In this document: one piece after another, positions 30,695 through 34,824 of the stretch
Layout: each line of letters begins with the position of its first letter
Position numbering within the stretch: the stretch's first letter is position 1
From: Thermoplasmatota archaeon
GTDB taxonomy: Archaea > Thermoplasmatota > Poseidoniia > Poseidoniales > Thalassarchaeaceae
Reading direction: 5' to 3'
Length of the DNA: 64,000 bases
Assembly: GCA_030828405.1 (NCBI GenBank)
Contig: JAURCP010000007.1
Location: 2,250-66,249 of the forward strand
Notes under the pieces: generated by a model
The model's database searches: none
What the model was told of the DNA's origin: nothing
Seen by the model: only the letters and a program-made list of their open reading frames with translations
Position numbers and translations under genes: made by a program

Positions 30695-32083
30695 GTGGTA
30701 TCATTTTCAGACTTGGGAATAGGTCCCGCTATTGTTAAAGAATTAAACAAGCAAGGTATTACTGAACCCTTCGAAGTTCAGAAAGAAAGTATCCCTGATT
30801 CTCTACTAGGAAGAGATGTGTGTTGCAGAGCGCCTACTGGATCAGGTAAGACACTAGCATTTGGACTTCCATTGATTGCCAGAACTAAGAGAGCTAACCC
30901 AAAAAGGCCTACTGGATTGATATTAACCCCTACTCGAGAATTGGCCGAACAAATAAATTCGGTACTGAGGCCTATCGCATTAGCAGTAGATAGAGATGTT
31001 GTCTCGATATATGGAGGAGTCTCCTACAAGAAGCAATACAATGCTTTGAATAAAGGAGTGGATATATTAGTAGCATGTCCTGGTAGATTAATCGATTTAT
31101 TGGACAGACGTGCTCTAAAGTTAGACGATGTAGAAACTATAGTACTAGATGAAGCAGATAGAATGGCAGATATGGGCTTCATGGATCCAGTTTGTGAAAT
31201 CTTGGATAAATGTTCTAATGAAAGGCAAACGATTCTTTTCAGTGCAACATTAGATGACGATGTTGCTGACTTAGTTAAAAATTATCAAAATGATCCTGTG
31301 ACAATTGAAGTAGGTCCTAAAGAGGTTAGCATAGAAAATATGCAGCATCTATTCTGGACAATGAAACCACACCAAAAATTAGGGGTTACCTCTGAAATAC
31401 TTGCAAAGTGCGGAAAAACTATGATTTTCTGTAAAACTAGAAGAGGAGTAGATAGATTAGGGAATGAAATGTATGATTCGGAAATGAATGTTTCAACATT
31501 ACATGGAGGTCTGAATCAAAGACAAAGAGATAGGGCATTAAAGCGATTCACCAAAGGTGGAGCTATCGCTTTAGTTGCAACAGATGTTGCTGCAAGAGGA
31601 ATTGATATTCAAGGAGTCAATTGTGTAATTCATTATGACCCGCCGGAAAATGGTAAAGCATACAAACATCGCAGTGGAAGAACTGCTAGAGCAGGAGCAG
31701 AAGGCGTAGTGATTTCATATGTACAAAGATCACAGCAAAGAACATACAATAAGATACAGAATGAGGTTGGGATAAAAAGAAGGTTTCAACCACCTAATGT
31801 AGATAATCTTACAGAATATCCTATGGAATATGTTGAAGAGGTGTTCGAAGAAGAAGTTAGAAGACCTCCTTCTGATAATAAAAAACGAAGAAAGAATAGG
31901 AGGCAAAGGGGACCTCCACAGAAATCAAGAAGCTCTTCAGAGAGGCAAAGAAAAAGGTCTCATAAATCTAAGCGTAGTAATAATAATGATTCAAAAGATG
32001 GGAAAAAATTTAATCCCAACCATAAGAAAAAGAGAAGAAACAATAGGAATAAACCGAAAAAAGGGAATAAAAGCGACAAATGA
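30695..32083 (+). CDS. DEAD-box RNA helicase with basic low-complexity tail
   Basis: APTGSGKT, PTRELA, DEAD, SAT, ARGID, HRSGRTAR. Confidence 0.95.
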   Translation: MVSFSDLGIGPAIVKELNKQGITEPFEVQKESIPDSLLGRDVCCRAPTGSGKTLAFGLPLIARTKRANPKRPTGLILTPTRELAEQINSVLRPIALAVDRDVVSIYGGVSYKKQYNALNKGVDILVACPGRLIDLLDRRALKLDDVETIVLDEADRMADMGFMDPVCEILDKCSNERQTILFSATLDDDVADLVKNYQNDPVTIEVGPKEVSIENMQHLFWTMKPHQKLGVTSEILAKCGKTMIFCKTRRGVDRLGNEMYDSEMNVSTLHGGLNQRQRDRALKRFTKGGAIALVATDVAARGIDIQGVNCVIHYDPPENGKAYKHRSGRTARAGAEGVVISYVQRSQQRTYNKIQNEVGIKRRFQPPNVDNLTEYPMEYVEEVFEEEVRRPPSDNKKRRKNRRQRGPPQKSRSSSERQRKRSHKSKRSNNNDSKDGKKFNPNHKKKRRNNRNKPKKGNKSDK

Positions 32084-32158: not shown

Positions 32159-32371
32159 ATGAGCATGTGGATTAAAGCAATGACTGACTTAGGGCCTACA
32201 AGAATTCGTGTACAATCAATCTGTGCATACCAATTTATCAAAGAAGAGGGTGGAGAAGGAGAAGTACTCTTAATTTACACCGCAGATAATACATTATTTG
32301 AGGTTCATGAAAATGTATCTGGAGTTCTAGAACTCCTAGATAATCACTTTGAAAACGATTTCATGAATTGA
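32159..32371 (+). CDS. Small hypothetical protein
   Basis: 70-aa ORF filling the intergenic gap, plausible beta-rich composition. Confidence 0.55.
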   Translation: MSMWIKAMTDLGPTRIRVQSICAYQFIKEEGGEGEVLLIYTADNTLFEVHENVSGVLELLDNHFENDFMN

Positions 32372-32373
32372 TT

Positions 32374-33159
32374 TCAAGACCAAGGATCTATCGCTACGAT
32401 ATGTTCGATTTTGATTGAGTTAGAGTTTTCATAATCTGCTTTGTCAGATGCTGATTTCAAGATTCTCCTCATCCATCCGAGCATCATCAGTTTCTCATAT
32501 TTCTCTAATGAATTTTTAATGGAAGATAAGTCACCTTGCTGAATATTCTTTTGAAGATTATATTCTAAATCGGATGCATAATCATAGTAGAGAAGTAATA
32601 ATTCTTCTACTGCATCATTATCTAATTTCTTACCTGATAATTGTTTCATGAGATTCTTGATATTTATAGGAGATAATGATTCTATTTTTTTAACATTTGA
32701 GACACTTACATTTTCAGAACTTTCATTTAATGATGTTTCAGTTTGTTGAATATTACCCGAAGAAGTCGTTTTTGAGGACATATGCCTAATTTTTATTGTA
32801 CCTACTCTCTCATTATCAGCTTCTTCAGCAGCCAAAAGAAGAGAGTTTTTGAGATAGTTTTCAAGTATCTCATTTGCATTTACTACTGCTGCGGAACTTA
32901 CTGATTCTACATTTTCAATCTCTTCTATCATTAGGCCTCTGGTTCGGCTAAATCCAAGTCTAGTTCTATTTGGATCTGATAGGGTTTTCTTACCCGGCTC
33001 ATTTAGCAAAGTTTCTTCTTCCATTTCTCGAGTGATTTGCTTAAGCCTTAGATGTAACATCTCAACTAACTTCTCCTTTACTTCACCACTTATCCGGTGA
33101 TCGATCCCCAAGCCTTTAGCAACTTCTGATACGTGACTGGGTGCCCACGGTTTAGCCAT
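32374..33159 (-). CDS. Multi-histone-fold protein (tandem histone triplet or quadruplet)
   Basis: Segments align by eye to HMf/NF-YC folds: HRISGEVKEKL...GKKTL; SRTRGLM..VESVSSAA...RVGTIKIRH; INIKNLMK..KLDNDAVEEL...SNSIKIEHI. Confidence 0.7.
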   Translation of the reverse strand: MAKPWAPSHVSEVAKGLGIDHRISGEVKEKLVEMLHLRLKQITREMEEETLLNEPGKKTLSDPNRTRLGFSRTRGLMIEEIENVESVSSAAVVNANEILENYLKNSLLLAAEEADNERVGTIKIRHMSSKTTSSGNIQQTETSLNESSENVSVSNVKKIESLSPINIKNLMKQLSGKKLDNDAVEELLLLYYDYASDLEYNLQKNIQQGDLSSIKNSLEKYEKLMMLGWMRRILKSASDKADYENSNSIKIEHIVAIDPWS

Positions 33160-33360
33160 AATTCACTTGAGTGTAGTAAAGGACTTGAATTATCAGTATA
33201 GGCAATTACGAATTTCGCTTGAAAATTGAATTATTATTATCTATAATACGCCGGTATGAAAAACTATCACGCCCTAGGATAGTTGATGGTTGTAGGTCGA
33301 TTGTATATTTTTGCTCTCAATTCCCTTTCTCTTCTTCTTTCTTGGCGACGTTGTTTTCGT

Positions 33361-34824
33361 ATGATTCAAAGAACAATCAATGCTTTGGACTTTAGCGTTC
33401 TCAAAAAGCAAGAGACTTGGAAAGCTTTCTTGATTGGTATAGTACTATTTTGTATCATTGGCTTTGCATCTCTGACACTTTTTGGTTTATCTTCATCAAT
33501 ATATGGTGTTTCAGATGATATTGAGACTGTTCCAGATTTTGTAGCACCAACCATGAACAGGACTGGAATAGATGATTCTCACAATATCGAAAATGGCACT
33601 CTACAACTATCCGATCTAAGAGGAAATGTAGTAATCTTAGATTTCATGGCAGTTGATTGTGCTAATTGTCACTATGTTCAGGAACATATAGAACAAAATA
33701 TCGACGATTGGAGAGAACTTGAGGGCGAATATCCCGTAATTGTTGTTTCAGTAGGAACTTGGTATAGTCTGGAAACATTCGAACAAATTAATACCACTTT
33801 TGGCGATTCAGATTCGGATAAATTCATGAATTGGGTCGTAGTAAATGGTGGTTCTGAAACAGTGATTCTAGAAAATGGGACAATGGGTGATCTTGTAGAA
33901 TATTACTCTGCTCAACTAATACCATTAGCTCTGGTAATTGACCATGAAGGATATGTAGTAGCAAAAGAAAATACTGGGACGCCTTTAGATCGATGGAAGT
34001 CTTTCGATAATGCTATTGAGAAAGCAAATAATGGAGAAGCATCAGATTTAAGATTTGGAATCGAGAAAACAGATAGATCGACTTATGGAGTATTCATAAT
34101 AGGTTTATTCCTAGGATTCTTAGTATACTTTAGTCCATGTGCCTTCCCGGTTTTACCTTCATACATTACTTACACTCTAAGTTTAGGGATGAGAGAAGAG
34201 GAACTCAGAAATAATGGTAAAATTGTAGGTAATATGCCTGGACCATTAGCAATTGGTGGATATGCTGCCTTAGGGCAATTGACATTCTTTGCAATAGTTG
34301 GAATAATCATTTTTGGTCTATCTGAAATCTTTAATTTATCTGGTTATCTACATAAAATTGCTATTGCTATCGCCGTCCTATTAATTATTTTAGGCGCACT
34401 AATGCTTCTTGGTTGGACATCACATTTACTTTCAAAAGTACAGGATATTATTGATAAGTATCAAACAAATGAAAATAGTGATGAAGTATTCACTCCTAGA
34501 AGAAATATGTACCTCTGGGGAATAGGTTACTCTGCAGCATCTGTGGATTGTACAGCGGCTGCAGTTTTCCCATTCATTGGTTGGTTAGCGGTAGTAGGAA
34601 GAACTGAGTTCATTTTCGGACTTGTTGGGTTAATGATTTCTGTAAGTTTCCTAATGATTGCAGTTACTGCTCTAGTCAGTTTCGGACGTCAAGCGATGAT
34701 TGGATATCTAAGAAGCTCTACAGGATTGATTAAAGCAATCGGTTCATGGATGATGATGTTTGCAGGAATTGGATTATTTATCTACCTAACAGAACCAGAA
34801 ATGGTTTCAACAATAGTTTTCTAG
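33361..34824 (+). CDS. Thioredoxin-like domain plus CcdA/DsbD transmembrane redox fusion
   Basis: LSDLRG.VVILDFMAVDCANC, then TM region with FSPCAFPVLP and ASVDCTAA. Confidence 0.8.
   Translation: MIQRTINALDFSVLKKQETWKAFLIGIVLFCIIGFASLTLFGLSSSIYGVSDDIETVPDFVAPTMNRTGIDDSHNIENGTLQLSDLRGNVVILDFMAVDCANCHYVQEHIEQNIDDWRELEGEYPVIVVSVGTWYSLETFEQINTTFGDSDSDKFMNWVVVNGGSETVILENGTMGDLVEYYSAQLIPLALVIDHEGYVVAKENTGTPLDRWKSFDNAIEKANNGEASDLRFGIEKTDRSTYGVFIIGLFLGFLVYFSPCAFPVLPSYITYTLSLGMREEELRNNGKIVGNMPGPLAIGGYAALGQLTFFAIVGIIIFGLSEIFNLSGYLHKIAIAIAVLLIILGALMLLGWTSHLLSKVQDIIDKYQTNENSDEVFTPRRNMYLWGIGYSAASVDCTAAAVFPFIGWLAVVGRTEFIFGLVGLMISVSFLMIAVTALVSFGRQAMIGYLRSSTGLIKAIGSWMMMFAGIGLFIYLTEPEMVSTIVF

Follow-up and report, generated by a model that had tools for sequence, protein, structure and literature searches.

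The closest described relatives of the protein analysed here are the 'acidic quadruplets', which form cluster 5 in a clustering of 6473 archaeal histones (PMC13260811, Nat Commun 2026; preprint 10.1101/2025.06.26.661778, June 2025). According to the excerpted text of that paper, cluster 5 comprises 130 sequences with a median length of 262 amino acids (aa), an isoelectric point (pI) of 5.2 and four predicted histone-fold motifs, is always the sole histone gene of its genome, and is exclusive to Poseidoniales (both families) and one closely related genome. In the same text its sequences are called poorly conserved and, beyond the first fold, lacking in classic signatures. Here we analysed a histone gene at 32374..33159 on the minus strand of a 64,000-nucleotide stretch (the window) of contig JAURCP010000007.1, from a genome of the family Thalassarchaeaceae (Poseidoniales, Thermoplasmatota; GCA_030828405.1). 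It is an intact open reading frame (ORF) with an ATG start and 261 codons, corresponding to the 261 aa of its translation. The encoded protein resembles the cluster 5 members in length (261 versus a median of 262 aa), pI (5.56 versus 5.2), taxon and sole-histone status, and no feature excludes it from the cluster. The initial annotation of this sequence had suspected that published histone surveys may already cover the family, which is correct for PMC13260811. Since the family is already in print (PMC13260811, as excerpted), the window adds one more member and not a discovery. The 2024 catalogue of prokaryotic histone families (PMC11390915) contains neither 'Poseidoni' nor 'Thermoplasmatota' in its main text, and a literature search linking the histone fold to Marine Group II archaea found no paper. 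Close homologues carry the NCBI organism name 'Candidatus Thalassarchaeaceae archaeon', and several are labelled 'histone H3/H4' by JGI.

Our results indicate that the window gene encodes a member of the Poseidoniales acidic quadruplet histones, with two predicted histone-fold pseudo-dimers in one chain, joined by a disordered acidic linker (Table 1). In the window protein, Pfam PF00808 scored 24.5 bits over residues 78-128 in fold 2 (gathering cut-off 21.4). Among 36 aligned family members chosen from 120 listed homologues (alignment A1), PF00808 matched in 33 and PF00125 in 32. Searched against PDB, the A1 profile matched parts of H2A and H2B chains, the best match being H2A (E 6.6e-6, profile positions 84-136), and also NC2alpha (1jfi_A, E 8.7e-4). 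The single window protein searched with phmmer against PDB returned chance-level matches only (sortase, E 0.12).

We compared segments of a 57-sequence family alignment with a canonical reference profile, built from nine archaeal singlet histones of other genomes of the phylum, using hhalign. Fold 1 (residues 5-64) aligned at 85.5% probability (E 5.7e-6, 57 columns) over alpha1, loop L1, alpha2 and loop L2; its alpha3 is missing, because the alignment ends at L2 and the AlphaFold2 (AF2) model has no helix at residues 54-70. Fold 2 aligned as a complete fold (81.4%, E 1.2e-5, 62 columns). Fold 3 (residues 160-204) aligned over alpha1-L1-alpha2 (81.6%, E 1.1e-5, 45 columns) and gave a weak NCBIfam archaea_histone match below cut-off (17.4 bits, residues 167-195). 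Fold 4 alone reached 5% (E 0.0079, 44 columns), in register over alpha2-L2-alpha3. Within the protein, fold 2 (residues 102-127) and fold 4 (residues 229-254) resemble each other over the C-terminal part of alpha2, L2 and alpha3 (70%, E 4e-5), and folds 1 and 3 are weakly alike (48 columns, E 0.022). Pfam searches with isolated segments of three to five members found nothing above cut-off for folds 1, 3 and 4, the weak rows being TAF, TFIID-18kDa, TIP49 lid and Cdc6 lid. The initial annotation had described an HMf-like first fold without helix 3, an H2A/NC2-type fold at residues ~68-127 and, after a Ser/Thr/Asn linker, a further HMf-like segment; the profiles, together with the predicted disorder of residues 129-162, agree with each of these descriptions.

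The full-length AF2 model, built on the 36-sequence alignment, has a mean predicted local distance difference test score (pLDDT) of 73.3 and a predicted TM-score (pTM) of 0.45. Its N half (the part containing folds 1 and 2) has helices at residues 7-17, 25-53, 71-80 and 89-116 and a short one at 123-125, and bridges at 22-23, 59-60, 86-87 and 121-122, which are the expected loop positions. The best VIA match that we detected for residues 3-136 is the single-chain H2A-H2B dimer entry 7dlx_B (Z 13.5, root-mean-square deviation (rmsd) 2.4 Å over 126 residues, 21% identity). Further matches are the HMk doublet 1f1e (Z 11.5), the Melbournevirus doublets (Z 11.7-11.9), the histone domain of SOS (Z 10.5) and SAGA (Z 10.3). 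Helices, bridges and the superposition on H2A-H2B together place handshake helix pairs in the predicted N half, though fold 1 is without alpha3, and residues 1-128 are thus predicted to adopt a single-chain H2B-H2A dimer fold. The N half superposes on the known single-chain doublets, namely HMk of Methanopyrus kandleri (1f1e), the Melbournevirus H2B-H2A doublets (7n8n, 9cvt) and the engineered scH2B-H2A, at Z 11.5-13.5 and in the same H2B-like-then-H2A-like order. The window protein differs from these doublets in lacking alpha3 of fold 1, in being acidic and in carrying a second, degenerate pseudo-dimer after an acidic linker, and its identity to them is 18-23%. With PF00808 above cut-off, handshake pairs in the predicted N half, two AF2 models and the match to single-chain H2B-H2A, the evidence bears out the original proposal of a pre-linked multimer of unlike histone folds.

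The likeness of fold 2 to NC2alpha also bears on the possibility of a transcription cofactor similar to NC2 or NF-Y, which the initial annotation had offered, beside an alternative chromatin particle, as a possible function. In such a cofactor the N half, together with TBP or TFB, would sit on promoter DNA, and contacts to the transcription machinery would fall to the C half. The Pfam family PF00808 takes in CBF, NF-Y and HMf, an H2B-like fold precedes an H2A-like one, and fold 1 alone has a weak TAF match (PF02969, E 0.048, below cut-off). However, the H2A matches outscore NC2alpha, the likeness to NC2alpha/beta and NF-YB/C does not go beyond the general H2A-type fold, and the window protein is fused rather than heterodimeric and stands in an archaeal context. 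No NC2- or NF-Y-specific feature was identified, although no specific element was searched for. We therefore regard a cofactor of this type as very improbable.

Modelled alone on 28 sequences from the window and genome loci, the C half is compact (pLDDT 91.7, pTM 0.79), and residues 163-261 are predicted to form a compact helix-strand-helix domain of histone ancestry. In the full-length model its helices lie at residues 164-175, 181-208, 211-223, 226-243 and 251-255. In Foldseek, histone doublets rank first (1f1e, E 0.029, query-normalised TM-score 0.61; scH2B-H2A, 0.62-0.71), with none at E <= 0.001. An exhaustive VIA comparison returned lid domains of AAA+ proteins (MCM, RuvBL and clamp-loader; Z 7.3-8.5, rmsd 2.0-2.4 Å, 64-72 residues) together with histone doublets (Z 7.5-8.2, rmsd 3.7-4.7 Å, 96-101 residues), Z values that VIA itself annotates as middling for helical domains. 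This tie is unsurprising, since the histone fold is described as derived from the AAA+ helical domain by a three-dimensional domain swap (PMC1847821, as excerpted). The likeness to the lids is structural only and partial, covering 64-78 of 102 residues, and the window protein has no ATPase domain.

The initial annotation had left open whether an insertion or a degenerate fourth fold follows the third, and the data hold evidence for both. If the C half were a single histone fold with alpha2 interrupted by a 35-aa insertion, the protein would have three folds, and the C half might be 'un-swapped', a folded-back form where L1 pairs with L2 of the same fold, the arrangement seen in AAA+ lid domains; such an architecture is compatible with any function. 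It would be consistent with hhalign, in which the complete C half aligns with a single canonical fold across a gap of 35 residues in alpha2 (62.7% probability, E 7.2e-5), with AAA+ lids as the top VIA matches and those of best rmsd (Z 8.2-8.5, 2.2-2.4 Å, 70-71 residues), with weak Cdc6_lid matches in 5 of the 36 A1 members, and with the domain-swap origin of the histone fold (PMC1847821, as excerpted). Against it, the histone doublets cover 96-101 residues where the lids cover 64-78, their query-normalised TM-scores are higher (0.61-0.71 versus about 0.38), and the likenesses of fold 1 to fold 3 and of fold 2 to fold 4 fit the duplication of a doublet. We consider the three-fold architecture a tentative but substantial possibility. 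Compared with the four motifs predicted for cluster 5, folds 1-3 of the window protein align with the canonical singlets at 81-86% probability, fold 4 alone at 5% (70% against fold 2), and the C half ties between doublets and AAA+ lids.

We examined conservation in 56 Poseidoniales sequences, consisting of the 36 of A1 and 20 from genome loci of three families: Thalassarchaeaceae (f1, the window's own family) and two families that we refer to as f2 and f3. Mean top-residue frequency is 0.67 in folds 1 and 2, 0.75 in the inter-fold loop, 0.38 in the linker and 0.55-0.56 in folds 3 and 4. At least 95% conserved in the N half are K3, P4, R22, K28, K58, T59, L60, R65, R67, R72, T73, R74, S86, T121, I122, K123, R125 and H126, among others, with R65 and R67 of the inter-fold loop reaching 98%; in the C half only G228 and A241 are. 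Lys or Arg is found in at least 90% of the sequences at 12 N-half positions (3, 22, 28, 57, 58, 65, 67, 72, 74, 118, 123 and 125) but at only two in the C half (172 and 231). The conserved basic sites of the N half correspond to the L1 Arg and RKT-type L2 in fold 1 and, in fold 2, to the beginning of alpha1 with the loop before it and to L2/alpha3, where TIKPRHL resembles the aligned H2A segment. The L2 motif (R/K)KTL of fold 1 is present in all 56 sequences. In fold 4, L2 reads RGKKTI in three of five homologues from outside the order, RGYKRI in most of f3, GS(R/K) in much of f1 and NSNSIK in the window protein, so that RKT-type L2, kept in fold 1, has degenerated in fold 4 of the window's genus, in line with the partial loss of RKT loops first noted. 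The linker is acidic (median net charge -7) with a median length of 38 aa (range 31-51 aa), and the C half is mildly acidic (median -3). In contrast to the excerpted text of PMC13260811, folds 1 and 2 are here both well conserved and carry canonical basic loop residues. We also observed that the termini co-vary by family, with N-terminal K-P-W and C-terminal D-P-W in f1 and K-P-Y and D-P-F in most of f3 (window 33145-33153 and 32380-32388, minus strand; loci L020-L039).

Like HMfB-type nucleosomal histones, the window protein has an L1 Arg and an (R/K)KT L2 in fold 1, and its folds 1-3 align in register with the singlets. It differs in not being a basic singlet of ~70 aa. The L1 Arg and RKT L2 occur together in fold 1 only (R22; K57-K58-T59), with S86 and TIK in fold 2 and NSNSIK in fold 4. 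Two of the four folds are without alpha3, so that the repeating four-helix-bundle interface could not form at both ends. Because folds 1 and 3 lack alpha3, only folds 2 and 4 could present a four-helix-bundle face, which makes open-ended hypernucleosome stacking unlikely.

Based on these conservation patterns and predicted structures, we favour a mechanism, in our view evenly balanced between right and wrong, in which the N half is a DNA binder, the degenerate C half a cap or partner module and the acidic linker a modulator, in an accessory protein acting beside MC1. The contrast of 12 conserved Lys/Arg positions at canonical DNA-contact loops in the N half with two in the C half is what points to the N half as the DNA binder. 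The N half would be a working DNA-binding module that contacts and bends ~30 bp through two L1-L2 sites and the Arg-rich region of fold 2 alpha1. The C half, in which one L1-L2 site has disappeared along with almost every conserved basic residue, would be a non-DNA-binding module for capping, oligomerisation or partner binding, and the linker may tune or compete with DNA binding. The protein would then form at most a small closed particle and not an open-ended hypernucleosome.

Several observations weigh against this mechanism. The whole protein is acidic (pI 5.56 in the window protein; median 5.23 in the 56 sequences), with the N half itself no better than close to neutral (median net charge -1). 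Position L1 of fold 2 carries Ser (S86) instead of Arg in 56 of 56 sequences, and R22 is replaced by Asn in the five out-group homologues. The tie of the C half between AAA+ lids (Z 8.2-8.5) and histone doublets (Z 7.5-8.2) leaves its classification as two folds unsettled. All of the structure is predicted, and the pTM of 0.45 leaves the relative placement of the two halves undefined; a complex prediction of the N half (1-130) with the C half (160-261) gave no answer (score 0.00) and was counted neither for nor against their packing. Finally, the authors of PMC13260811 lean the opposite way on DNA binding: the excerpted text reports that AlphaFold3 modelling of cluster 5 with DNA yielded nothing nucleosome-like, and raises the possibility that cluster 5 does not bind DNA at all.

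That suggestion would make the protein a histone-fold scaffold that does not bind DNA, its fold co-opted for protein-protein contacts as in TAFs or the SOS histone domain and its basic residues serving RNA or an acidic partner. Besides the acidic pI, the non-chromatin double histone folds among the structure matches (SOS and SAGA), the dispensability of the gene in many sister genera and the availability of MC1 as a nucleoid protein are consistent with a scaffold. The 12 conserved Lys/Arg positions, on the other hand, lie exactly at the DNA-contact sites of histone dimers, including the (R/K)KTL motif of fold 1 and TIKxRH in fold 2, and no conserved neighbour gene suggests a partner. On balance we think a scaffold rather unlikely.

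A protein database search limited to 143-457 aa yielded 122 homologues at E <= 1e-3, mostly 259-280 aa long with 99-100% query coverage. With the window protein as query (P0001), 127 of the 201 genomes of the order were matched at E <= 1e-5, in line with strong conservation, and every match is an open frame without internal stops. By family, leaving out the window's own genome (G000), these are 29 of 99 genomes in f1, 2 of 2 in f2 and 95 of 99 in f3. In six genera of f1 (g3, g4, g5, g6, g7 and g9), none of 59 genomes was matched, some of them 91-97% complete and some in one or five contigs. The A1 profile at E <= 1 detected nothing in five genomes at least 93% complete, one each from five of these six genera. 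Contrary to what the excerpted text of PMC13260811 implies, the gene was thus not found in most Thalassarchaeaceae genera. PF00808 as a six-frame genome probe misses the quadruplet family (E 0.189 in the window's genome; 0 of 42 f3 genomes), so P0001 and the A1 profile served to judge absences. In the window's own genome (1.41 Mb, 69 contigs, 80.8% complete), PF00808 matches at the histone locus only. In histone-less f1 genomes we observed PF00808 matches below cut-off (15-19 bits, profile positions 28-65) in ORFs of ~750 aa (G013:C70:8493-8606, G009:C32:60228-60314, G007:C5:61132-61236 and G005:C27:18898-18984; L014-L017), which we assume to be AAA+ lid-like segments and not histones.

Across the phylum, the A1 profile matched 69 of 401 genomes (f1 6 of 36, f3 57 of 58). 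Outside f1 and f3, 5 of 306 Thermoplasmatota genomes were matched (E 5e-13 to 3e-28), four from family f36 and one from f46, with sizes of 3.1-4.4 Mb. The ORFs of these five share the four-part layout, and they add two other families to the range given in the excerpted text of PMC13260811. A maximum-likelihood tree of 37 proteins (midpoint root, two long branches) has two clades, each with 100/100 support: the five out-group proteins and the 32 Poseidoniales proteins. Within the Poseidoniales clade, f1 is largely set apart from f3+f2, roughly as in taxonomy. Within the order the gene is inherited and under constraint, and it is dispensable in most Thalassarchaeaceae genera. Its distribution is consistent with descent inside the order followed by losses in Thalassarchaeaceae; the tree settles neither the root nor a possible transfer to or from the out-group. 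Shorter forms (16 matches) are all 65-96% identical and lie on short contigs, and we read them as gene fragments and not split genes. No longer or fused forms were found among 4338 candidates, which is weak evidence. Elsewhere in Thermoplasmatota we detected a 321-aa ORF with two tandem canonical histone folds and a C-terminal domain of ~170 aa (L045; G214:C66, ~1501-2463), and two further genomes have frames of 327-328 aa with two PF00808 matches each (G203:C19:74384-74749 and G224:C185:7825-8184).

We also looked for other nucleoid proteins. MC1 (PF05854) is encoded in the window's own genome (85 bits at G000:C24:910-1167; L067) and in all five other Poseidoniales genomes tested, four of which lack the quadruplet histone, giving six of six in all. 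According to the excerpted text of PMC7613761, most Marine Group II archaea encode MC1 and histones were lost at the root of Diaforarchaea. HU (PF00216) was found in none of the same six genomes, the window's own included, and Alba (PF01918) in two of six but not in the window's own; neither explains the patchy distribution of the histone. The presence of MC1 in all six genomes and the lack of any match to the histone gene in the 59 genomes of those six f1 genera suggest that the protein may be an accessory nucleoid protein beside MC1.

The same results bear on whether the quadruplet might instead be the main DNA-wrapping particle, with folds 2 and 4 forming an intramolecular four-helix bundle and the single-chain tetramer wrapping ~60 bp. 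Folds 2 and 4 do share alpha2C-L2-alpha3, a linker of 31-51 aa would be long enough, the window's own genome yielded no second histone, and the gene is nearly universal in f3. Yet the C half has two conserved basic positions and one L1-L2 site only, the packing of the halves in AF2 is undefined, no nucleosome-like AlphaFold3 model is reported in the excerpted text of PMC13260811, MC1 occurs in all six genomes tested, and the gene went undetected in the majority of Thalassarchaeaceae genera. A wrapping tetramer is, in our judgement, improbable. Of similarly low probability is a self-limiting single-chain chromatin particle in which the N pseudo-dimer binds DNA and an 'un-swapped', AAA+ lid-shaped C domain caps it through the fold 2-fold 4 helix bundle. 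If true, this would be an extant intermediate linking the histone fold to the AAA+ helical domain, and a built-in capstone preventing hypernucleosome growth.

Table 1. Features of the quadruplet histone gene, in window coordinates (res, residues)
Feature	Coordinates	Strand	Description
Whole gene	32374..33159	-	261 codons + stop 32374-32376; single-chain four-fold ('quadruplet') histone
Fold 1, res 1-62	32974..33159	-	alpha1 7-17, L1 with invariant R22, alpha2 25-53, L2 K57-K58-T59; without alpha3 (AF2, hhalign)
Arg-rich inter-fold loop, res 63-70	32950..32973	-	Replaces alpha3 of fold 1 and runs into alpha1 of fold 2; pLDDT <50 at 63-69
Fold 2, res 71-128	32776..32949	-	Complete H2A/NC2alpha-like histone fold; R72-T73-R74 at alpha1, T121-I122-K123-x-R125-H126 at L2/alpha3
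Linker, res 129-162	32674..32775	-	Disordered, pLDDT 27-31; poorly conserved
Fold 3, res 163-209	32533..32673	-	alpha1 164-175, L1 176-180, alpha2 181-208; without L2 and alpha3 (AF2)
Degenerate fold 4, res 210-261	32377..32532	-	Helix 211-223, shortened alpha2 226-243, L2 244-250, short alpha3 251-255; conserved C-terminal D-P-W

The G+C content of the histone gene region (34-37%) is similar to that of the remaining window. Its neighbours encode a DeoC-type aldolase, a DEAD-box helicase, a 70-aa ORF without family, an AhpC-like/membrane ORF (513 aa) and a PhoU-domain protein. The order helicase, 70-aa ORF, histone, membrane ORF is common to eight loci of the genus but was seen in none of 23 loci outside it, among which no conserved partner gene was seen either. 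As the neighbours are kept solely within the genus, the histone gene stands alone. The 70-aa ORF (32159-32371, plus strand) has no Pfam family, runs toward the histone gene and ends 2 nt from its stop codon; its identity is 80-97% across the eight genus loci and 54% in a single locus from a different genus. The DEAD-box helicase (30695-32083, plus strand) has a K/R/S/N-rich tail of ~90 aa beyond its Helicase_C domain (31800-32083). At window positions 33266-33386, contigs of two RNA libraries (X2 and X5) have 18-32 different letters in place of the whole segment. The segment covers the 5' portion of the 513-aa ORF, for which a TTG at 33283 is the listed start; the strain-variable part may be non-coding, and the real start may lie further downstream. 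The histone gene itself is partly covered by contigs in all four metatranscriptome runs examined (24 are listed). As contigs show neither transcript level nor strand and DNA carry-over is possible, this indicates presence in RNA libraries only. No promoter was identified, the sigma-70 and terminator scan used not being applicable to archaeal promoters.

Poseidoniales (Marine Group II) belong to the most abundant archaea of the plankton, and we know of no cultured member. The lineage has long been counted as histone-free (PMC7613761, as excerpted). An acidic, fused four-fold histone without two of its alpha3 helices, encoded beside MC1, raises the questions of whether it is a chromatin protein at all and of how small a histone-based particle can be. 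Its N half alone, judged from conservation and the predicted fold, would be a candidate DNA binder, and the distant homologues outside the order whose fold 4 has the canonical loop RGKKTI would lend themselves well to biochemical work.

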